Source: Myxococcota bacterium
Lineage (GTDB): Bacteria > Myxococcota_A > UBA796
Reading direction: 5' to 3'
Assembly (NCBI GenBank): GCA_029251165.1
Contig: JAQXDW010000095.1
Coordinates: 4,423-68,422, forward strand
DNA length: 64,000 nucleotides
Part shown: positions 11,706 to 36,114 of the stretch, in pieces
Numbering within the stretch: position 1 is the first letter of the stretch
Layout: every line of letters begins with the position of its first letter
The notes under the pieces: model-generated
What the model saw: only the letters and a program-made list of their open reading frames with translations
Told to the model about the DNA's origin: nothing
The model's database searches: none
Program-made: the position numbers and the translations under genes

Positions 11706-13295
11706 TCATGGATCTTCACGTCCCGCGCGCGCAATCTGTCTCCCTCCGAGGTTCGCTGACAGCCCGGTGAACCCCTGAAGCTCGGTGATCGAGGCGATCT
11801 GTCCATCAACCACCGCCCGAAAGATCCCCCCACGAGCCCCCACCTGCAGTCCAAAGACCGGCCCGAGCGGAAGGTGCACACCGCCGCCGGCCCACACCCC
11901 GGGTGCCACAGTCTCCGCAGTAAACACCTCGACTCCCTCGATGTCGCCTTCTTCGTAGTCGTAGTTGTCCAGGCGCTGCGTGATCCAAGCGGCCTGAGCA
12001 CCTGCACTGACGGAGAGATCCAGCCTCGGCTGGTGACGCTCAACGAGCACCCCTCCGGCGAGCCGACTCGACGCGGTCAGCAGCTCGCCTCCCCAGGACT
12101 CCATCGCTCCTCGACCGGTACCGATGACCCCGACGATCCCGAGTCCGGGCCGCAGGAGGTGGCGGACCTCTGCCTCGATCCCGAGGTGAGATGGCGTGCC
12201 CGACAGCAGCGGCGGTGCTGCGGTGCCGTGGAGGGAGAGCCGAAGCGGGCGGAGGTTCCAGCCACCCCGCGCCAGCGGATCGCCGAGCGCGATGGAGTCC
12301 ATCTGGGCATCCTCCAGCCAGCGGTCTCCGCCCCACACCAGGTCCACCTCTGCGAGCAAGACGTCTTCCTGGCGCACCTTCCGCACGAGGTAGCGGCCGG
12401 TCGGCAGCGCGAGACGCCGCTGCTCTCCGGCAGTCTTTTCGATTCGGGCGACCACCAGCCCGGTGCTGACCGAGACGACGGTGTAGGTGCCCTCCAGCTC
12501 TTCGGGCAGCAGCAGTCCGGCCGCGCGGCTGGAGATCCGGGTGAGCACCACCGAGCCGACACCCTCCAGATCGTACCGACGCTCTGGGCGCTGGATGCTG
12601 CTGGCGGCGGCGGTGGAGGTGATGGTCTCGGTCCGGGCGTAGGTGTAGGCCTCTTCCAGTGAGATCTCACCGTCGCCGTCGCCGTCGGCGCTGCCCCGCA
12701 GTCCGCTGAGCAGCGACTGGGTGAACACGCCGCCGCCGAAGGCATCTGCCTCTCGGGCGACCTCGGCGGGGCCTGTGGAGGTGATGACTGCGAGGCCGGA
12801 CATGGTGAGGGTGTCGTCCACTACGATCTCGACCGCCTCGACCGGTGTGCCGCCCCGGCTGCGGGTCAGCACGCCAGAGCCGCAGGCATCCACGAACGCG
12901 ATCCGCACCTCCGCAGCGCTCGACTCCAGCCACCGCCGCAGGACCGCCATCGGCAGCAGGTTGCCGGAGAGGTGCAGCCCGTCGGGACTGGCGTGGCCGG
13001 AGTAGAAGAAGATGAGCATGACGTCATCGCCCCGGGCAGTGATCTCCCGGATCTGGGCCTCGGTCTGGAACACCGCCTCGCGGACCGCAGCGGCGCTCGT
13101 GCCGGTCAGCAGCAGCGTGCGGTCCCGAGACAGCGCCCCCTGCTGCTGGAACAGCCGGGCCATGTCTCGGGCCTCTTGCTCGGCGTAGGTCAGCTCGGCG
13201 TCCTCGCCAAAGCCGATGTTGTTTCCGATAAAGACACCGACCCGCACCGTCTCGGCGCGGGCGATCATCCCAGCCAGCAGCAGGGCAGTGCTCAT
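11706..13295 (-). CDS. Exported caspase-like (peptidase C14) protein with beta-strand-rich C-terminus
   Basis: Signal-like MSTALLLAGMIARA; IGNN.G, L.YAEQEA, FFYSGHA (His), FVDACGSG (Cys), GGVFT..LL.GLRG.AD.DGDG.ISL.EAY. ATG 13295 overlaps the upstream stop. Confidence 0.85.
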   Translation of the reverse strand: MSTALLLAGMIARAETVRVGVFIGNNIGFGEDAELTYAEQEARDMARLFQQQGALSRDRTLLLTGTSAAAVREAVFQTEAQIREITARGDDVMLIFFYSGHASPDGLHLSGNLLPMAVLRRWLESSAAEVRIAFVDACGSGVLTRSRGGTPVEAVEIVVDDTLTMSGLAVITSTGPAEVAREADAFGGGVFTQSLLSGLRGSADGDGDGEISLEEAYTYARTETITSTAAASSIQRPERRYDLEGVGSVVLTRISSRAAGLLLPEELEGTYTVVSVSTGLVVARIEKTAGEQRRLALPTGRYLVRKVRQEDVLLAEVDLVWGGDRWLEDAQMDSIALGDPLARGGWNLRPLRLSLHGTAAPPLLSGTPSHLGIEAEVRHLLRPGLGIVGVIGTGRGAMESWGGELLTASSRLAGGVLVERHQPRLDLSVSAGAQAAWITQRLDNYDYEEGDIEGVEVFTAETVAPGVWAGGGVHLPLGPVFGLQVGARGGIFRAVVDGQIASITELQGFTGLSANLGGRQIARAGREDP

Positions 13296-14041
13296 GGCAT
13301 GTCGTCCTCTCCCTTCACGATCATCACCGATCGCTGCTGGTCTGCGGCACCGGGCAGGACATCGAGATCCGCCAGCGGTGCCCGCCACGCGCGCTGGACC
13401 GCACCGGAGACGATCGCCTCGGTGATCTCTTCGTCGTCGAGCAGGAAGAAGATGCGCTCGCTTCCCGCATAGTCGTCGAGCACCACCGCATGCTCCGTGG
13501 TCTCCCCCTTTCCGATCGGCTCGCTGGTCAGGTAGGGCTGCAGCGTGCCGTCGTCCTGGAGGTTGTAGACGGCGATGTAGCCGTCGGACTCGGCGGTGAT
13601 GATGTACTGGATGCGATCGCCGGCCTGCGCACGGATGAGGCTTGCCTGGGTGTCGGCTTGCCCGTCTCGGACTCGGACGATCTCCAGTCCGATGCCCTCA
13701 CCTCGGGCCACCATGCCGCCAGGGGTTGCGGGGTCGGTGATGGTGACGGCGAGGATGGCGGCAGCGGCCGCCGCGAGCCCGCCGAGCAGCATCGGCGGCG
13801 GACTCAGGATGCGCCGCCACCACGGCTCGACCTCGGCGGGCAGCCGAAGGACGGGCATGCCCTGTGCGGCATCGGTGACCTCGGCATGGATGCGCTGTAC
13901 CCGGTCGTCGAGCGAAGGATCCGCAGCACGGGCGGCAGCGAGGGCCTCGGCGCGGGCCGGGTCCAGGCGTCCAAGCGCTGCGAACTCCAGCTCCAGCCGG
14001 GTGAAGGTGTCGGAGGGGTCTGCGGGCATGTCGGCTCTCAT
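13292..14041 (-). CDS. Putative membrane anti-sigma factor with DUF4384-like extracytoplasmic domain
   Basis: Short helical N-terminus, one TM (LLGGLAAAAAAILAVTI), then GDRIQY...GYIAVY...VVLDD..GSERIFF. Translationally coupled to the ECF sigma. Confidence 0.65.
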   Translation of the reverse strand: MRADMPADPSDTFTRLELEFAALGRLDPARAEALAAARAADPSLDDRVQRIHAEVTDAAQGMPVLRLPAEVEPWWRRILSPPPMLLGGLAAAAAAILAVTITDPATPGGMVARGEGIGLEIVRVRDGQADTQASLIRAQAGDRIQYIITAESDGYIAVYNLQDDGTLQPYLTSEPIGKGETTEHAVVLDDYAGSERIFFLLDDEEITEAIVSGAVQRAWRAPLADLDVLPGAADQQRSVMIVKGEDDMP

Positions 14042-14544
14042 GGTGACTCCACGGCGAGCAGGGGGGGGTCGGCACCGAGCAGGGCACGCGCGCGTGCCTC
14101 CAGCCGCGCCAGGTTGCGCCGGATGGTGCGCTGGGAGGTGTCGAAGTGCTCGGCGATCTCCTGGATTCGCCAGCCCTCGCCCAGCCGCAGCCGCAGCATC
14201 GCGGCGTCTCGGGGGCCGAAGCGATCGAGGAGGCGTCGGACATCGAGCTGGGAGCCGGCGCCAGCTCGCTCGGGGGCGGGCAGGCTGAGCCAGGTGAGGG
14301 GATCGTCTTGCCAGGGGCGGCGCTTTCGCAGCACGTCGAGGGAGGTGTTCCGCGCGATGGTCTGGAGCCAGGCGAGGGGGTGTCGTCCGTCGAACCGTCG
14401 CCGAGCCTTCCAGGCGCGCAGGAAGGTCTCCTGGAGGGCCTCGTCGGCGTCGGCTTCGTTGCCGCAGATCGATCGACACCGTGCGCGAACAGCCGGTCCG
14501 TAGTCGGCGTAGAGCGACTGGAATTCTGCCTGCGTCAAGCTCAT
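14038..14544 (-). CDS. ECF sigma-70 factor
   Basis: LYADYGPAV..., ADADEALQETFLRAW, WLQTIARNTSLDVLRKR (region 2); EGWRIQEIAEHFDTSQRTIRR (region 4). ATG 14544. Confidence 0.9.
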   Translation of the reverse strand: MSLTQAEFQSLYADYGPAVRARCRSICGNEADADEALQETFLRAWKARRRFDGRHPLAWLQTIARNTSLDVLRKRRPWQDDPLTWLSLPAPERAGAGSQLDVRRLLDRFGPRDAAMLRLRLGEGWRIQEIAEHFDTSQRTIRRNLARLEARARALLGADPPLLAVESP

Positions 14545-15209
14545 TCGTCGCACGCTGCGGTCAGTCCGCCGAGCCCGGTGCCGGTGAACACCATCTGGGC
14601 GGCTCCGGAGAGCCAGGAGATGGACACGACGCGCACTCCCTCCTCCTCCTGCTCCACCAGGTCCTCCTCCGACAGCGGATAGAGCGAAGCCGCGAGGGAA
14701 CCCCGGGCCAGCGCGAGCTCTGGCAGCATGCCGACCCACTGGCTGCCCTCGGTGAATTCGCCGTCGTCTCCATCCAGCATGAGATCTTCGGTGAGCGCAT
14801 CGAGGTCACCCTCGCCCAGCAGCAGCGCTCGGGAATCCACAGCGCCCCATGCGCCAGGCTCGTCAGCCAGCTCTTCTGCCTCTGCGACCTCGTCGGGATC
14901 GACCCGCTCCGGGTTGACCAGGACCAGCAGCCCCAGCGCCCAGCGATACGCGCCCTCTTCGATCCAGACCGGAGACTCGTAGAGCTCGGGAGGCTCGGCG
15001 TAGACCCGGCCCATGGTCAGCTCTGGCGCGATGTCCTCCAGCGCGATGAGGCTGCACTCCGCGAGCAGTCCCTCGTCGTCGTCGATGAGCCACCGAAGCG
15101 ACCACGCCGGCTCTGTTGGAAGCGGTGGAATGTCCGACAGCTCCGCCAGGGCATCTCCGCTGAGGAGCCCATCGCCGCAGCCGGCCAGGACGAGTATGAG
15201 CATCGGCAT
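14541..15209 (-). CDS. Acidic lipoprotein, first gene of the ECF-caspase operon
   Basis: MPMLILVLAGC lipobox; stop overlaps the sigma start (ATGA). Confidence 0.7.
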   Translation of the reverse strand: MPMLILVLAGCGDGLLSGDALAELSDIPPLPTEPAWSLRWLIDDDEGLLAECSLIALEDIAPELTMGRVYAEPPELYESPVWIEEGAYRWALGLLVLVNPERVDPDEVAEAEELADEPGAWGAVDSRALLLGEGDLDALTEDLMLDGDDGEFTEGSQWVGMLPELALARGSLAASLYPLSEEDLVEQEEEGVRVVSISWLSGAAQMVFTGTGLGGLTAACDE

Positions 15210-30409: not shown

Positions 30410-30520
30410 GCGCTCTCGCGGGTGCCAGATTTTTGTTTAAATTCTGCCGAATTGTTGTCTGTTTGTTGTCCGAAAAGCAATGGCAAACGCCGATTAACCT
30501 TCATCTTATGGAGGTGGTTG

Positions 30521-31918
30521 ATGCTGTGGGTACTTGGACTGGGATGCTCGGAGCCGGTGATCGAGGAGCGACCATGGAGTGCAGATCCCATCCTGCTGAC
30601 CATCAGCGTTCATGGTCACAACTATGGGCTCGACACCAGCAATGAGGACGCAGCGTCGTACCGCGAAGAGCGCTACACGAGCCATCAGACGGAGCTGCTC
30701 TGGCTTGCAGACCTCGCAGAGTCTGAGGGCATGCTGCTCAGCGTGCAGCTCAACGGCGAGTATGCCCGAGATGCCATCGCCTTCGACGACACCGCGCACC
30801 TCGATGCCTTGCAGGATGCCGGACACGAGCTGTCGGTTCACTTTCATCGCTTCCACCTCGATCCGGAGGGCAGCAGCTGGCTGGAGTACGAGGCGCACGA
30901 GGCGAGCGAGGCGCGGGTTCGGCAGACCTGGGCAGACCACATCAATGCGTTCGAGGATGCTGTCGGGACCGCGCCGATTCGTGTGGATGCCGCCACCGGC
31001 ATCGACACCCCTGAGCAGCTCGCCCTGCTCGATGACCTGGAGGCGGAGTACGGCATCGAGGTCAGCCACAACCTGGGAGAGCGCCTGTCGTACACTCCCT
31101 GGAACATCAAGCCGATGACCCCCTATCGCCGGGCTGTAGGGGCCTACACCCGCTCCGATCCCGACGGACAGTCGATCACCACCAGCGCGCTGGGGCAGGT
31201 CACCAACGCGCCCCCTCAAGGGCACCACGCCGTCTACAGCTCGCCCGATCAGATCCGCCGACACCTCCTGGTCTTGGAGGCGGAGCGTCGACACCAGGCG
31301 CTTGCTGGGGTGGACGATCCGGTCTGGCAGTTCGGGATCATGACCCACCTCGACCTCAACGCCGCCAACCGCCTGCCGGTGGAGAACATGGTCCGGGAGC
31401 TGGCGGAGCAGACCCGCCGCGATGGCCTCGCCGTGCCGGCCACCGACTCGATTGTGCTCGATGCGTTTGAGGCGTGGGAGGTTCGGAACCCGGGAGCGGT
31501 CGCGTTCTCGTTTGACTGGGAGGGCTGGCTGGCTGGCGATGATGTGTCGCTGCCCTATGCCCTGGAGGGGGTCATCTGCGGCCTGAAAGACACGGAGCAT
31601 CACGCCTCCATTGTGCCCTCATCAGGGGTCTATGGGGTCGAGCTGAAGGGCCGGGAGATCATGCGCGAGCCTCCAGATGAGCGAGGCTTTCCGGGAGAGA
31701 TGGCCGTCGGGGATGCACTGGGTCCGATCTACATGCTGTGGAGCGAGCAGCACAGCGACACCACCATCGACTTCTCTCCCAAGCTCTCCGGCACAGTCTG
31801 GGTCATGGATGGCCTCTCCGGTGAGATCACCACCCAGGATGCTGGGCAGCTGACGGTCCCCACCGCCCCCATCCTCGTCACCCGAGACCCCGCCCTGCTG
31901 GATGGGTGCGAGGCATAG
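30521..31918 (+). CDS. Lipoprotein, possible polysaccharide deacetylase/GH38-57-like metal-binding barrel
   Basis: MLWVLGLGC; SVHGH, GHELSVHFH, IMTH His motifs. Confidence 0.55.
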   Translation: MLWVLGLGCSEPVIEERPWSADPILLTISVHGHNYGLDTSNEDAASYREERYTSHQTELLWLADLAESEGMLLSVQLNGEYARDAIAFDDTAHLDALQDAGHELSVHFHRFHLDPEGSSWLEYEAHEASEARVRQTWADHINAFEDAVGTAPIRVDAATGIDTPEQLALLDDLEAEYGIEVSHNLGERLSYTPWNIKPMTPYRRAVGAYTRSDPDGQSITTSALGQVTNAPPQGHHAVYSSPDQIRRHLLVLEAERRHQALAGVDDPVWQFGIMTHLDLNAANRLPVENMVRELAEQTRRDGLAVPATDSIVLDAFEAWEVRNPGAVAFSFDWEGWLAGDDVSLPYALEGVICGLKDTEHHASIVPSSGVYGVELKGREIMREPPDERGFPGEMAVGDALGPIYMLWSEQHSDTTIDFSPKLSGTVWVMDGLSGEITTQDAGQLTVPTAPILVTRDPALLDGCEA

Positions 31919-32091
31919 CAGCGCGCCGTCACTGGCTTGGAAGCATCACGACCTGAATTAAACAATTGAGATTCAATTCCAACGGCTCTGGTCTGATGGG
32001 CAGCCCGGCGAGAAGACGAAAACACCAGACAGAAAGAAAAATTGTCAGAACACCGACCCTGCTGGCGAACAGGTCTGTCAGGAGGTCAGGT

Positions 32092-32394
32092 GTGGATGTG
32101 ATAGCGCTGAATGCCGCAGATGTTGATCTGAAGCGACGGGAGATCCGCCGCGCGGAGCAGACCCTTCGACTGACCCGGATCGAGCACCGGCTGATGCAGT
32201 GGTTTGCCCGACATCCCGGCGAGCTGTTCAGCCAGGCAGAGCTGCTGGAGGCTGTGTGGGGCTACCTGCCCGGGACGCGATCTTGCACGGTCTACACCAC
32301 CATCCAGCGCCTCCGACGGAAGCTGGAGATCGATCCCCGACACCCTCGTCATCTCCAGACGGTCTATGGTGTCGGCTATCGGTTCGAGCCGTGA
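32092..32394 (+). CDS. Stand-alone OmpR/PhoB-type winged-helix DNA-binding domain
   Basis: LTRIEHRLM..FARHPGELFSQAELLEAVWGY...TIQRLRRKLEIDP..P..LQTVYGVGYRF; AGGAGG RBS before GTG 32092; no receiver domain. Confidence 0.8.
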   Translation: MDVIALNAADVDLKRREIRRAEQTLRLTRIEHRLMQWFARHPGELFSQAELLEAVWGYLPGTRSCTVYTTIQRLRRKLEIDPRHPRHLQTVYGVGYRFEP

Positions 32395-33074
32395 GCATGC
32401 TCTGGGCGCTCACGGCTCGGTCGATGCCGGAGACGACGCTCTCCTCGAACGAAGAGGCGGTGATGCCCAGGACCCCGGAGCAGCTCCTCACTGACACCCT
32501 CTGCGGCAGCACTGAGGCTCGGGAGGGACTGATGCGCTGCCTCCTGCCGGTGATTCATGCCCGGGTTGGTCGCGCGGTCCTGCGCCATGGTCCCGCCTCG
32601 GTCCACAACAACCTCCGGATGGAGGTCGAGGATCTGGTGCAGGAGATCTGCCTGTCGCTGTTTACCGATGACTGTCGGATCCTGCGCAGCTGGTCGAGCC
32701 GCCACGGCGTCCCGCTGGCAGGCTTTGTGGGCATGGTGTCTCGTCGGCGCACGATCTCGCTGCTGCGGCGGCGCTGGCAGACCGAGACGCCGGTCCCCGA
32801 CGAGCTCCTGGCGCAGGCTGCGGGAGCGGCCGCTCTGGAGGACGATCTGATCCGCCGAGATCTTCTGATGCGCGCATTTGCGGTTGTGGAGTCGGCGCAG
32901 AAGCCGCTGGGCCGACAGATGCTGCGGATGCTGTTTATCGAGGGGCTCCCGGTGTCTGAGATTGAGGCACAGACCGGTCGCAGCGCAGCGGCAATTTACC
33001 AGTGGCGCCACCGGCTGATCGGGGCGCTCCAGCAGGTGCTCCAGCAGCTTAAGGCTGAGGCAGGTGACGAATGA
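32391..33074 (+). CDS. ECF sigma-70 factor (start uncertain: 32391, 32397 or 32463)
   Basis: EVEDLVQEICLSLF...LRSW...L.GFV.MVSRRRTISLLRRR; EGLPVSEIEAQTGRSAAAIYQWRHRL. Confidence 0.85.
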   Translation: MSMLWALTARSMPETTLSSNEEAVMPRTPEQLLTDTLCGSTEAREGLMRCLLPVIHARVGRAVLRHGPASVHNNLRMEVEDLVQEICLSLFTDDCRILRSWSSRHGVPLAGFVGMVSRRRTISLLRRRWQTETPVPDELLAQAAGAAALEDDLIRRDLLMRAFAVVESAQKPLGRQMLRMLFIEGLPVSEIEAQTGRSAAAIYQWRHRLIGALQQVLQQLKAEAGDE

Positions 33075-33829
33075 AGTCAGACAACAGCCCTGATGAGCTC
33101 GACATGGAGCACCTCGATGCGCGCTGGGATGCGCTGTCGGCAGGAGAGCTGAGCGACGAAGAGGCCGCCGCGCTCGCTGCGCTGGATCCTGCCGCAGCGC
33201 TGGCCCTCGCGCCGCTCGGCTCAGGCTTTGCAAGCCGCCTCAGCGCGGAGCTGGCGGTGATCCCGCTGCCGTCCGCGCCGGCCCCGCGCCGTCGCCGATG
33301 GCTCTGGGCTCCCCGGCTGCTGGCTGCCCTGGCGGTGCTGTGTGTGGTCCGGCTCGGGGTGGTGCTCAGCACGTCGCCGACGGCGCTCCCGAGCTATCGG
33401 CTGCTCGCCCGCCCCGGTGACCTCCCTGAGCGCTCGAACAGCGCCGACTCGGATGCGGTCATGACCCTGGCGACCGGCTCTGCGATGCGTCTCCTCATCC
33501 GCCCCCACACCCGACCCGAGTCCCCCACGCAGGTCGCGGTGTTCTCGCAGACGGCACAGGGGTGGGCGCCGATGTCGCTCAAGGTGTCCTCGGACGGCGG
33601 CGTGCATCGACTGGTGGGCACGGTTGGGGATGACCTCTCGCTGCCGGCCGGCCACCACACCCTGCTGATCGGCGTCGGGCCGGCGGGTCCGGTCGGGCTG
33701 CTGGAGCGCGCGGCTCCGGTGCGGGGGTGGCGTGCGACCTTCTCCGCAGATGCCCTGGACACCGCCATGCAGGACCCGCCTGAGCACTGGACCTTCTGGC
33801 AGCATGAGGTCATCATCTCTACGAAATGA
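33071..33829 (+). CDS. Putative membrane anti-sigma factor
   Basis: Helical N-terminus (WDALSAGELSDEE), PRRRRW + TM, extracytoplasmic beta-domain. ATGA-coupled to both the sigma and CHAT genes. Confidence 0.65.
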   Translation: MKSDNSPDELDMEHLDARWDALSAGELSDEEAAALAALDPAAALALAPLGSGFASRLSAELAVIPLPSAPAPRRRRWLWAPRLLAALAVLCVVRLGVVLSTSPTALPSYRLLARPGDLPERSNSADSDAVMTLATGSAMRLLIRPHTRPESPTQVAVFSQTAQGWAPMSLKVSSDGGVHRLVGTVGDDLSLPAGHHTLLIGVGPAGPVGLLERAAPVRGWRATFSADALDTAMQDPPEHWTFWQHEVIISTK

Positions 33830-36114
33830 TCTTCCTCGCGCTGCTTGGCTGTATGCAGCCACCGTCACCGGCCACGCTGCCGCTGATGTTTGATGGCTGT
33901 GCAGCGGTGGAGGCCGGCCCGCGCTGCCTGATGCGTGGCGCGTCGGTGCGCCTGTGGATCGAGGCGCTCCCGCCGCTGGACGTGCGCGTTGATGGACAGC
34001 TGGTGACAGTGCTCGCCCAGGTCGAGGGCGGCGGGGTGCTGCTGGACGTGCCGACTCCGGTCGGCGCCGAAGAAGTGGTGATTGCCGATGAAACCGGGCG
34101 GATCGGACGGCTCCTGCTGGGGGAAGCGCCGCCCGATGCTGTGGAGCAGCCAGCGCTGCTGGCGGGGCTGTCTTTGGTAGAGGCTGCGATTCATCGCGGC
34201 GACGTCGTGGCTGCAGAGGCGCACCTCCAGCAGCTCCAGGCGGTGCTTCCCGGAGACATCCGCTCGGCGTGGCAGGTCGCGCACTGGCAGGGAGAGCTGG
34301 CGGGCTATCGCGGTGATCACCGCGCCGCGATGGGGCACTACCGGATGGCGAACCAGCTCGCAGGGCGACTGCTGGATCCCGTCAACACCACCACCTTGGT
34401 CCGGCTGGCCGAGAACCTCGCGGCGGTGGGGCGCCATCGAGAGGCGCGCCAGCTCCTGCGGGATGTCCAGGGCTGTGTGGCGCAGGAGGCTCGGGCATGG
34501 CTGATGCTGGAGGCTGTGGAGCTGAGTGATGTGGAGCGGGCACCGATCCGGTCGCTCGACTGCCGCGGGGTCTCCCGAGTGGCGCTCTCCAAGGCCCGCG
34601 ATGCCTTGAGGCTGGAGGACCTCGATGCGATGGCTGCAGCGCTCCAGGATGCCGCACCGCAGGGACACGACGAGGCGCTGTGGGCACTGTACCTCCAAGG
34701 CCGACTCCACCAGCGCCGCGGCGAGCTTGCTGTGGCACGCGAGGTGATGGACAGGGTGATCGCCTCGACCGGAGAAGCCTCTCCGCGCCACCGATGGCAG
34801 TCGCTGGTGGCTCAGGGGGAGATCCTCGCCGCGCTCGGGCAGCACACCGAGGCCATCGTGGTGCTCCACGAGGCCCGTGCGGTCCTGCTGCGTCACAGCC
34901 TGATGGTCCCGCTCCACAACGGCCGCGATCGCTTCCTCAGCCGGGGACTGTCTGCTGACCGGCTGCTGGTGACCGTGCTGCTGGAGGACGGACAGGTCGC
35001 AGAGGCCCTGACGGTGATTCGAAGCGCACGACTCCAGCTCCTCCAGGGACTGCTGGTCGAGCAGTTCTCTGTGTCGGATCAAGCACGCTGGACTGCTGCA
35101 GTGAAGCACTACCAGGAGGCGCGCGCGGCGGTGACACCAGCGCAGTGGACCGCCACCGGAGAGCAGAGCCGGGTCTTGATGACCCTGCGGCGCCGGCAGA
35201 AGGAGGTCGCCCGTCAGGCCTTTGACGCCGGCACTCCCCAGAGCCTGCCTACACTGTCGCTGCGATCACCGGAGCCTGGCGAGCTGATGCTGGCGTGGTT
35301 TGAGCTGGGAGAGGGCTGGGTGGGAATCGCGGCCAGCTCGGATGCGATCCTCGCAGCTTCGATTGATGGAGTCGAGCCCGATGCCTCTCCCGAGGAGCGT
35401 GCGAGGCTGCTGGCCCCGTTTGCCACCCAGATCGCATCCGCTGACGTGCTCACCCTGCTGCCGCATGGCCCGCTTCGTGGCGAAGACCTGCACATGCTGC
35501 CCCTTGATGGTCGGCCCTTGCTGGCACACCTCCCGGTCCGCTACAGCCTCGATCTGCCCCCTCGGAGCCCTCGTCCAGCCGGGACCCGCGCAGCTGTCGT
35601 CAGCGATCCCCGGCTCAACCTGCATGGCGCACGGGAGGAAGCCGATCTGGTCGCTGCTGCGCTGGGTCAGGCTGGGTGGGTGGTGGACACCCTCTCCGGG
35701 ACCGAGGCCGCTCGCAGCCCGCTGCTGTCGCTGCTGTCGGGCGTCTCCATGCTGCACTACGCCGGACACGGGGAGCGCAACAACATCGTGACGGAGAGTG
35801 CGTTTCTGGTCGCAGCCGGCGAGCGACTGACTGTGGGTGACCTGCTCACCCTGGCTCAGGCTCCGCAGACTGTGGTGCTCTCCACGTGTGATGGTGCCGC
35901 CTCTCCGGCGGTTGCTGCCGAGAGTCTCGGGCTCGCTCAGGCATTCCTTCTGGCGGGGGCAGAGCAGGTCATCGCAGCGGTGGAGCCAGTCCAGGACCGC
36001 GACAGTCGCGTGCTGATGGAGCACCTGTACGCGAGCCCAGCCGATCCCGTTGGCGCATGGCGGGATGCCGTGCTCGCGTCAGACGCGGCTCCGTATCGGC
36101 TGATGGTACCCTGA
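33826..36114 (+). CDS. Lipoprotein with TPR-like repeats and C-terminal CHAT protease domain
   Basis: MIFLALLGC; helical repeats; LPHGPL...LHML, DPRLNL..AREEA, LHYAGHG (His), VVLSTCDG (Cys), GLAQAFLLAGA..VIA. Confidence 0.88.
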   Translation: MIFLALLGCMQPPSPATLPLMFDGCAAVEAGPRCLMRGASVRLWIEALPPLDVRVDGQLVTVLAQVEGGGVLLDVPTPVGAEEVVIADETGRIGRLLLGEAPPDAVEQPALLAGLSLVEAAIHRGDVVAAEAHLQQLQAVLPGDIRSAWQVAHWQGELAGYRGDHRAAMGHYRMANQLAGRLLDPVNTTTLVRLAENLAAVGRHREARQLLRDVQGCVAQEARAWLMLEAVELSDVERAPIRSLDCRGVSRVALSKARDALRLEDLDAMAAALQDAAPQGHDEALWALYLQGRLHQRRGELAVAREVMDRVIASTGEASPRHRWQSLVAQGEILAALGQHTEAIVVLHEARAVLLRHSLMVPLHNGRDRFLSRGLSADRLLVTVLLEDGQVAEALTVIRSARLQLLQGLLVEQFSVSDQARWTAAVKHYQEARAAVTPAQWTATGEQSRVLMTLRRRQKEVARQAFDAGTPQSLPTLSLRSPEPGELMLAWFELGEGWVGIAASSDAILAASIDGVEPDASPEERARLLAPFATQIASADVLTLLPHGPLRGEDLHMLPLDGRPLLAHLPVRYSLDLPPRSPRPAGTRAAVVSDPRLNLHGAREEADLVAAALGQAGWVVDTLSGTEAARSPLLSLLSGVSMLHYAGHGERNNIVTESAFLVAAGERLTVGDLLTLAQAPQTVVLSTCDGAASPAVAAESLGLAQAFLLAGAEQVIAAVEPVQDRDSRVLMEHLYASPADPVGAWRDAVLASDAAPYRLMVP

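Follow-up and report, generated by a model that had tools for sequence, protein, structure and literature searches.

Introduction

Several described systems pair a transcription regulator with a protein that carries a CHAT domain, and here we compare them with a locus at positions 32092-36114 (+ strand) of a 64,000-nt stretch of DNA from a Myxococcota bacterium (contig JAQXDW010000095.1, hereafter the window). The locus comprises four open reading frames (ORFs) for a winged helix-turn-helix (wHTH) protein, a sigma factor of the extracytoplasmic function (ECF) type, a putative anti-sigma factor and a protease with tetratricopeptide repeats (TPR) and a CHAT domain. The initial annotation had cited Craspase as a known case; the closest system is DdvS/DdvA of Myxococcus xanthus (PDB 8ROT, 8RW5), in which an ECF sigma factor is paired with a single-pass membrane anti-sigma factor bearing a periplasmic TPR-CHAT part with a His-Cys pair (PMC11506125, PMC6061681). 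DdvA without its TPR-CHAT part is a substrate of RseP, and CHAT-based site-1 cleavage of an anti-sigma factor was termed unprecedented, its validation awaiting the signal (PMC11506125). The family described below differs from DdvA in that the protease is separate, predicted to be exported and equipped with an N-terminal beta-sandwich, in that the anti-sigma factor bears an immunoglobulin-like (Ig) domain, in which an Arg loop is conserved, and in most cases lacks a zinc motif, and in that a subtilase is usually present as a partner.

In Craspase (Csx29/Csx30/CASP-sigma), Csx30 inhibits the sigma factor and is cut by the separate TPR-CHAT protease Csx29 in a linker between its sigma-binding N-terminus and its C-terminal beta domain, which is DUF4384 in some Csx30 proteins (PMC10028731; bioRxiv 10.1101/2022.08.17.504292). 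The CHAT protein studied here matches the fold of Csx29 (E 1e-15, TM-score 0.43). However, Craspase is cytoplasmic and RNA-triggered through Cas7-11, whereas the present proteins are predicted to be membrane-bound and exported. In Anabaena, the CHAT protease HetF cuts PatU3, an inhibitor sequestering the transcription regulator HetZ, after an arginine (R117/S118), but its CHAT domain lies on the cytoplasmic side with the TPRs in the periplasm, the gene arrangement is another one and the published account includes no subtilase (PMC9457339). The gene of ECF54 in Actinobacteria has genes for a subtilase and a CHAT/TPR protein as neighbours, and proteolytic control has been proposed (PMC7826278, PMC8999054); the group is described as confined to Actinobacteria, without an anti-sigma factor and with a GTATCAG/CTCC promoter, in contrast to the membrane anti-sigma factor, exported enzymes, different -10 element and Myxococcota/Acidobacteriota hosts found here. 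By analogy, the present family appears to work like DdvS/DdvA, Csx29/Csx30 and HetF/PatU3 and it shares its gene set with ECF54, yet judged by their defining features it is a member of none of them. No published description of it was found in the literature searched, most subscription journals being outside our reach.

We regard it as moderately probable that the CHAT protein is a signal-gated site-1 protease which cuts the anti-sigma factor at R121, whereupon RseP would follow and the sigma factor would fire its promoter.

A conserved cassette of sigma factor, anti-sigma factor and proteases

The conserved core cassette encodes an ECF sigma factor, a single-pass anti-sigma factor and an exported Ig-TPR-CHAT protease, which are usually joined by a subtilase that is likewise exported. 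This result is based on 63 loci, namely 61 from a genome collection retrieved with an 11-sequence protease alignment as query, minus two that do not belong to the family (L102, L107), plus three relatives and the window. The loci were picked by the protease alone, the hidden Markov models (HMMs) for the partners were seeded from the first loci, which remain in the counts, and related loci are not independent of each other. In 49 loci each flank is at least 4 kb long (full-flank loci). Of these, 45 have a sigma gene within 4.5 kb of the protease gene, compared to a chance expectation of about 2-3% (arithmetic from 17 sigma-like matches in the 8-Mb genome). The anti-sigma domain was detected by HMM in 41 of these loci, or in 45 if four fusions read by eye are included, the subtilase in 31, and all four genes in 25. 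The triad, whose lack of conservation would have spoken against the initial annotation, is conserved, and the linkage survives rearrangement: the order sigma, anti-sigma, CHAT, subtilase is the commonest (26 of the 63 loci), and divergent, convergent and permuted orders occur as well, with the genes remaining linked throughout. As a control, 12 stretches carrying CHAT genes unrelated to the family were searched by tblastn and gave no sigma match, but this control is weak because the same search missed sigma factors of other clades.

The hosts are annotated as Myxococcota and Acidobacteriota, the nearest named relatives of the window copy being Myxococcota, and include the cultured Sorangium cellulosum So ce56, Pyxidicoccus and Polyangium; among 401 genomes sampled from the phylum, 38 contain a match at E 1e-40. 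Four loci (L049, L065, L083 and L091) are annotated as Pseudomonadota groups, and their proteases group among Myxococcota sequences in the tree, so that these labels are probably wrong. The trees are quick LG+G4 reconstructions with long branches.

In the window, all four genes lie on the + strand at the positions initially proposed and overlap by 4 bp each, the three junctions being GTGA, ATGA and ATGA. The start of the sigma gene at GTG 32391 is supported, since the congeneric ortholog carries ATG at the same position. A frameshifted fusion of wHTH and sigma factor was considered and rejected because the ortholog shares the overlap. Two features go beyond the initial annotation, i.e. a conserved promoter at 32043-32069 and the subtilase as the usual fourth core gene, which is absent from the window copy. 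Where the subtilase is present, its catalytic residues are retained (D 41/41, H 41/41, S 39/41, two sequences being truncated).

The sigma factor (32391-33074, +, 227 aa) is divergent, with TIGR02937 at 41.8 bits (E 8.5e-11) against a cut-off of 42.9 and Pfam regions r2 and r4_2 below cut-off. It falls into a clade of 49 rows (SH-aLRT 99) that holds most cassette sigma factors and is separate from 12 other ECF sigma factors of the genome. The four zinc-finger anti-sigma factors pair with sigma factors outside this main clade, i.e. sigma clade and anti-sigma N-terminus change together.

Searching about 7 kb around 62 related loci, we found no further neighbour family conserved beyond close relatives and no defence system among the neighbours; Cas7-11, a conserved Cas-like cluster or a CBASS/CRISPR defence island of the kind linked to DdvA were likewise not found there. 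PADLOC, applied to nine proteins, returned a partial CHAT match only. Some subtilase-less cassettes contain small exported genes (L079:5582-7960, L092:4677-5336 and L085:1001-2251, all -, and L070:9225-9659, +) with a weak likeness to the N- or C-terminal part of the subtilase (E 6e-5 to 3e-3). Downstream of the subtilase, a common uncharacterised family is encoded in L051:7911-10250, L054:11327-11758 and L097:11109-13475, which could represent an output and is preceded by a promoter site in L051 and L097. L066 additionally encodes another CHAT fragment and another subtilase in tandem.

The putative anti-sigma factor and its near-invariant arginine

The middle gene (33071-33829, +, 252 aa) directly follows the ECF gene (+1) and encodes a small, acidic and helical N-terminus (residues 1-77), one hydrophobic membrane helix (83-101) and an Ig-like outer domain (102-252), which fits a membrane anti-sigma factor regulated by intramembrane proteolysis. 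The protein has no Pfam match and a weak match to the NCBIfam 'anti-sigma factor' model NF052375 (E 2.5e-4), and the membrane helix was found in 144 of 150 further homologues. Some homologues carry zf-HC2; the window protein lacks an HxxxCxxC zinc motif. In the AlphaFold 2 (AF2) model (pLDDT 81.7) the outer domain is a beta-sandwich, whose best structural matches are Ig-like (Z 7.9, a common level; rmsd 2.9; 99 aligned residues). The outer domain is homologous across cassettes even where it is combined with a zinc anti-sigma N-terminus and a sigma factor of another clade, which supports the identification as an anti-sigma factor and connects the outer domain with the protease, not with the sigma factor. 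At 50% identity the domain forms about 1,900 clusters (E up to 1e-10) without a Pfam family. In L032 (8500-9216, -) the anti-sigma gene is apparently frameshifted between zinc domain and outer domain, either by an assembly error or as a pseudogene.

R121 (codon 33431-33433, +) is located in a predicted loop, as coil in the AF2 model, about 20 residues past the helix, outside the membrane and ahead of the most variable segment. It is kept in 45 of 48 aligned anti-sigma factors (46 of 50 in another count), is also present in the anti-sigma/protease fusions, and recurs in 147 of the 150 top library matches, with G, S or A as the next residue in 140. In contrast to this, none of the six residues on either side exceeds 50% in the 48 aligned sequences except G115/G116. 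By analogy to HetF/PatU3 (R117/S118), we propose R121/S122 as the candidate cut site.

The exported TPR-CHAT protease and natural fusions

The protease gene (33826-36114, +) encodes 762 aa with PF12770 at 81.7 bits (E 8.3e-23), far above the cut-off of 24. The catalytic motifs read from the sequence beforehand are indeed present as HYAGH648G and LSTC688 (codons 35767-35769 and 35887-35889), and the His and Cys occur in 48 of 48 aligned members; a C25/C34 pair was noted in addition. The AF2 model (pLDDT 91.9) matches the folds of Csx29, DdvA and separase. A PDB search with the single sequence gave no match, whereas the family profile has DdvA (8ROT) as its best PDB sequence match (E 2.2e-10; catalytic domain 7.3e-13).

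With regard to localisation, the window protein has a lipobox (LLG-C9, Cys codon 33850-33852) after a short hydrophobic leader without a basic N-region and is thus a putative lipoprotein. Heuristic classification of the 63 loci yielded 30 proteases with a lipobox, 13 with a hydrophobic leader lacking the Cys, 7 fused, 1 without a signal and 12 unclassified. The earlier proposal that the protease resides on the same side of the membrane as the C-terminal domain of the anti-sigma factor is consistent with an export signal, or a fusion behind the anti-sigma helix, predicted in 50 of 63 loci.

Arg-specific clan CD enzymes are described as keeping an acidic residue around beta1-alpha1, and acidic residues are conserved near this position in the family (D594 in 45/48, E605 in 43/48). 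D724 was considered as an Arg-binding S1 residue and rejected, as its counterpart in separase is the Asp of the VTD motif, four residues ahead of Asp1082, the residue modelled as S1. Complex prediction of CHAT with the anti-sigma outer domain scored 0.00, a value that carries no weight because the controls were not folded. The proteases of L066, L074 and L097 have no N-terminal beta-sandwich.

In 7 of the 63 loci anti-sigma factor and protease form one ORF of about 1,100 aa, in the order inhibitor domain, membrane helix, Ig, Ig, TPR, CHAT, with a single membrane helix, no second signal peptide and no zinc motif. This overall layout is that of DdvA, whereas in the window zinc domain, helix and TPR-CHAT are not on one polypeptide but two overlapping genes are found. 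The fusions are confined to one clade of 13 rows with two changes on the tree, and may have had one origin. The fusions would place the protease outside the inner membrane, beside the Arg loop.

The fusions are, however, equally compatible with a shield. The TPR-CHAT protein could be a sensor or steric guard seated on the anti-sigma Ig domain, with R121 as its docking residue. The signal would release this guard, and the first cut would fall to the subtilase or to a site-1 protease of general function. In DdvA catalytic mutants still repress, and its bulky domain blocks RseP (PMC11506125). Nevertheless, we judge this reading to be unlikely: His and Cys are invariant in the 48 aligned members, and a basic-then-small motif occurs at the same place in two clan CD module types, with R or K following the caspase subfamily (see below). 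The subtilase is missing nearby in 18 of the 49 full-flank loci, and no member of its family was found in the present genome (90.75% complete).

A predicted, conserved promoter upstream of the operon

The cassette motif GTCAGAA-N15-CGAA is present in the window at 32043-32069 (+), where it is the predicted promoter of the cassette sigma factor with the -35 element TGTCAGAA (32043-32050) and the -10 element GCGAA (32065-32069). De novo motif search in the regions preceding the subtilase genes of relatives yielded GTCA-N19-GAA (16 of 42, versus 0.0 in shuffles). Scored with a matrix of 31 sites, from whose training the window and its ortholog were left out, the window site is the top score in the 8-Mb genome (23.8 bits); it is kept in the ortholog, and DNA homology with the latter begins at 32041. 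Judged from this top rank and from the position of the site where homology with the ortholog sets in, the operon is probably autoregulated with the wHTH gene as its first target. In style the promoter resembles that of DdvS (GTAA-n16-CGT versus GTCA-n18-CGA), but the DdvS pattern itself is not matched, the cassettes carrying GTCAG-n17-CGAA instead. TGTCAG-like words occur at 32043 and twice directly ahead of the wHTH start (within 32043-32091), are partly conserved in the ortholog and could be binding repeats of the wHTH protein.

Sites of at least 17 bits occur in 30 of the 63 loci, training sites counted, and precede the anti-sigma gene in 14, the subtilase gene in 15 and the sigma gene in 6. 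Other promoter sites precede genes that often start with signal-peptide-like leaders. A site is lacking in all five cassettes whose sigma factor belongs to another clade, but it is also lacking in 28 further loci. When the regions upstream of 49 sigma genes were searched for k-mers, no family-wide motif emerged, and a genome-wide regulon was not detected: three sites reached at least 20 bits compared to 10, 0, 0 and 1 for permuted matrices, and the exact pattern matched three times in the genome versus once in the control and twice in the congener versus none. A sigma-70 promoter or Rfam match was not found at the locus.

The 14 promoters between sigma and anti-sigma genes indicate that CHAT itself would be induced by the sigma factor. 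Together with the separate promoter of the subtilase in 15 loci, its intact catalytic triad and the subtilase-like fragments kept in some subtilase-less loci, this could also mean that the sigma factor mainly drives the secretion of proteases in an output cascade, with the subtilase propeptide or an outside protein as the CHAT substrate. We consider this rather improbable, since CHAT and the Arg loop are under purifying selection in a lineage without a cognate subtilase and CHAT is fused to the anti-sigma factor but in none of the 63 loci to the subtilase.

Proposed mechanism

In the signal-gated site-1 protease model, the cytoplasmic helices of the anti-sigma factor would hold the ECF sigma factor in the resting state, and its outer Ig domain would shield the membrane helix, while the membrane-tethered Ig-TPR-CHAT protein would sit in the same compartment as the outer domain. 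An envelope or protein signal, probably read by the TPR/Ig part, would activate CHAT, which would then cut the anti-sigma factor on the C-terminal side of Arg121, at a distance of about 20 residues from the membrane on its outer side. RseP, which is encoded in the genome (TIGR00054 above cut-off), would subsequently cut the helix and free the sigma factor to transcribe from GTCAGAA-N15-CGAA promoters; in relatives these would serve the anti-sigma/CHAT pair as a reset, the subtilase and other exported proteins. In the window, the promoter would lie ahead of the solo wHTH gene and the whole operon, and the wHTH protein would then probably relay or damp the response. The linkage, the fusions, the catalytic pair, the export signals, the Arg loop, the promoter motif and the presence of RseP have been shown by computation; sigma binding, cleavage at R121, the RseP step, the signal and the role of the wHTH protein are inferred.

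Several points weigh against this model. Published work on DdvA reports that H862A and C907A mutants still repress and that no autoproteolysis was seen, and its authors, who likewise propose CHAT as site-1 protease, could not demonstrate cleavage (PMC11506125). The near-invariant Arg could act in binding or folding instead of cleavage, and the count of 147 of 150 derives from a ranking by a profile that includes the Arg. In the protease, the equivalent of separase Asp1082, which is modelled as part of the Arg-binding pocket, is not conserved, and residue 598 is Asn in the window in contrast to Asp in 32 of 48 members. Furthermore, four of the 49 full-flank loci have no sigma gene nearby, 33 of 63 loci have no promoter motif that reaches 17 bits, and many of the sites used for training stem from related Acidobacteriota.

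If the model holds true, a large and so far uncharacterised family would show clan CD cysteine proteases in the role of dedicated extracytoplasmic site-1 proteases. In contrast to the single polypeptide of DdvA, enzyme and substrate are separate proteins in the split form, which also offers a candidate scissile bond (R121/S122) and a promoter for a reporter.

The window copy as a reduced cassette

The window copy is a reduced cassette without subtilase and with a lineage-specific solo wHTH gene in first position (32092-32394, +). The latter encodes a stand-alone OmpR/PhoB-type wHTH of 100 aa without receiver domain (PF00486, E 2.9e-22). Within the genome, N-termini of wHTH-ATPase proteins are among its closest matches (41-45%). 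As such a gene was found in only 2 of the 63 loci, the wHTH cannot be retained as part of the module core, as initially assumed. A cognate subtilase was not found in the genome, which is 90.75% complete (tblastn gave no match, the HMM two generic ones). The congeneric ortholog lacks it as well; the congener has a second copy with subtilase.

One could thus suspect a decaying remnant that has lost the subtilase, part of the TPR region and its regulon. The window TPR-CHAT protein is indeed the shortest of the 48 members, several TPR-region blocks and about 100 consensus columns being absent, promoter matches elsewhere in the genome are not beyond chance, and the ratio of nonsynonymous to synonymous substitution rates (dN/dS) against the ortholog is 0.31-0.38 for sigma, anti-sigma and protease genes, which is relaxed relative to the most constrained gene, the wHTH (0.115). 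However, these ratios are well below 1, the promoter is conserved, and ORFs, catalytic pair, lipobox and R121 are intact in three related copies (the window, the 67% ortholog and a 93% metagenomic relative), so that we regard decay as very improbable.

Directly upstream of the locus, a probable lipoprotein of 498 aa without Pfam match is encoded (30422-31918, +), which is syntenic in the congener but lies ahead of the promoter. The congener also contains a broken CHAT C-terminal fragment (L046:3294-4502, -) about 750 bp from another wHTH gene.

C14-caspase modules and a wider class

The suggestion in the initial annotation of a general class combining ECF sigma factors with exported clan CD proteases gains support, as a parallel class with C14 caspases exists. 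Of 151 genomes of the order, 122 contain matches to the caspase of the module at 11.7-15.2 kb of the window (11706-15209, -). From more than 300 matches, 20 loci were fetched, ten close and ten distant, and in 19 of these a sigma gene lies upstream of the caspase gene. In the protein encoded between them, [RK]G follows the helix at a distance of 5-22 residues in all 17 loci that were parsed (three unparsed), compared to 18 of 152 control membrane proteins. The residue tracks the caspase subfamily, with R-G in 8 of 8 close and K-G in 9 of 9 distant cases, and the window C14-module anti-sigma factor reads A-R-G directly past the helix. This matching juxtamembrane motif supports a wider class.

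The anti-sigma domains of CHAT cassettes and C14 modules may be homologous: comparison of their profiles gave a probability of 9.9% (E 0.003), 10 of 18 C14-module anti-sigma factors weakly match DUF4384 (PF14326), compared to 0 of 48 cassette outer domains, and the Atlas feature score between the outer domain and a cluster with 33% DUF4384 is 0.94. We tentatively propose, as a possibility nearly as likely as its opposite, that the envelope signalling switches of Myxococcota and Acidobacteriota include a large class not described so far. Within it, every ECF anti-sigma factor would be served by a dedicated exported site-1 protease of caspase fold (CHAT or C14), the two being matched by a juxtamembrane Arg/Lys-Gly code, and DdvA-type fusions would have arisen from split pairs. 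A third module is present in the same genome (G000:C45:47122-50449, -), comprising a sigma factor, a zinc-finger anti-sigma factor with T-K-G and a caspase.

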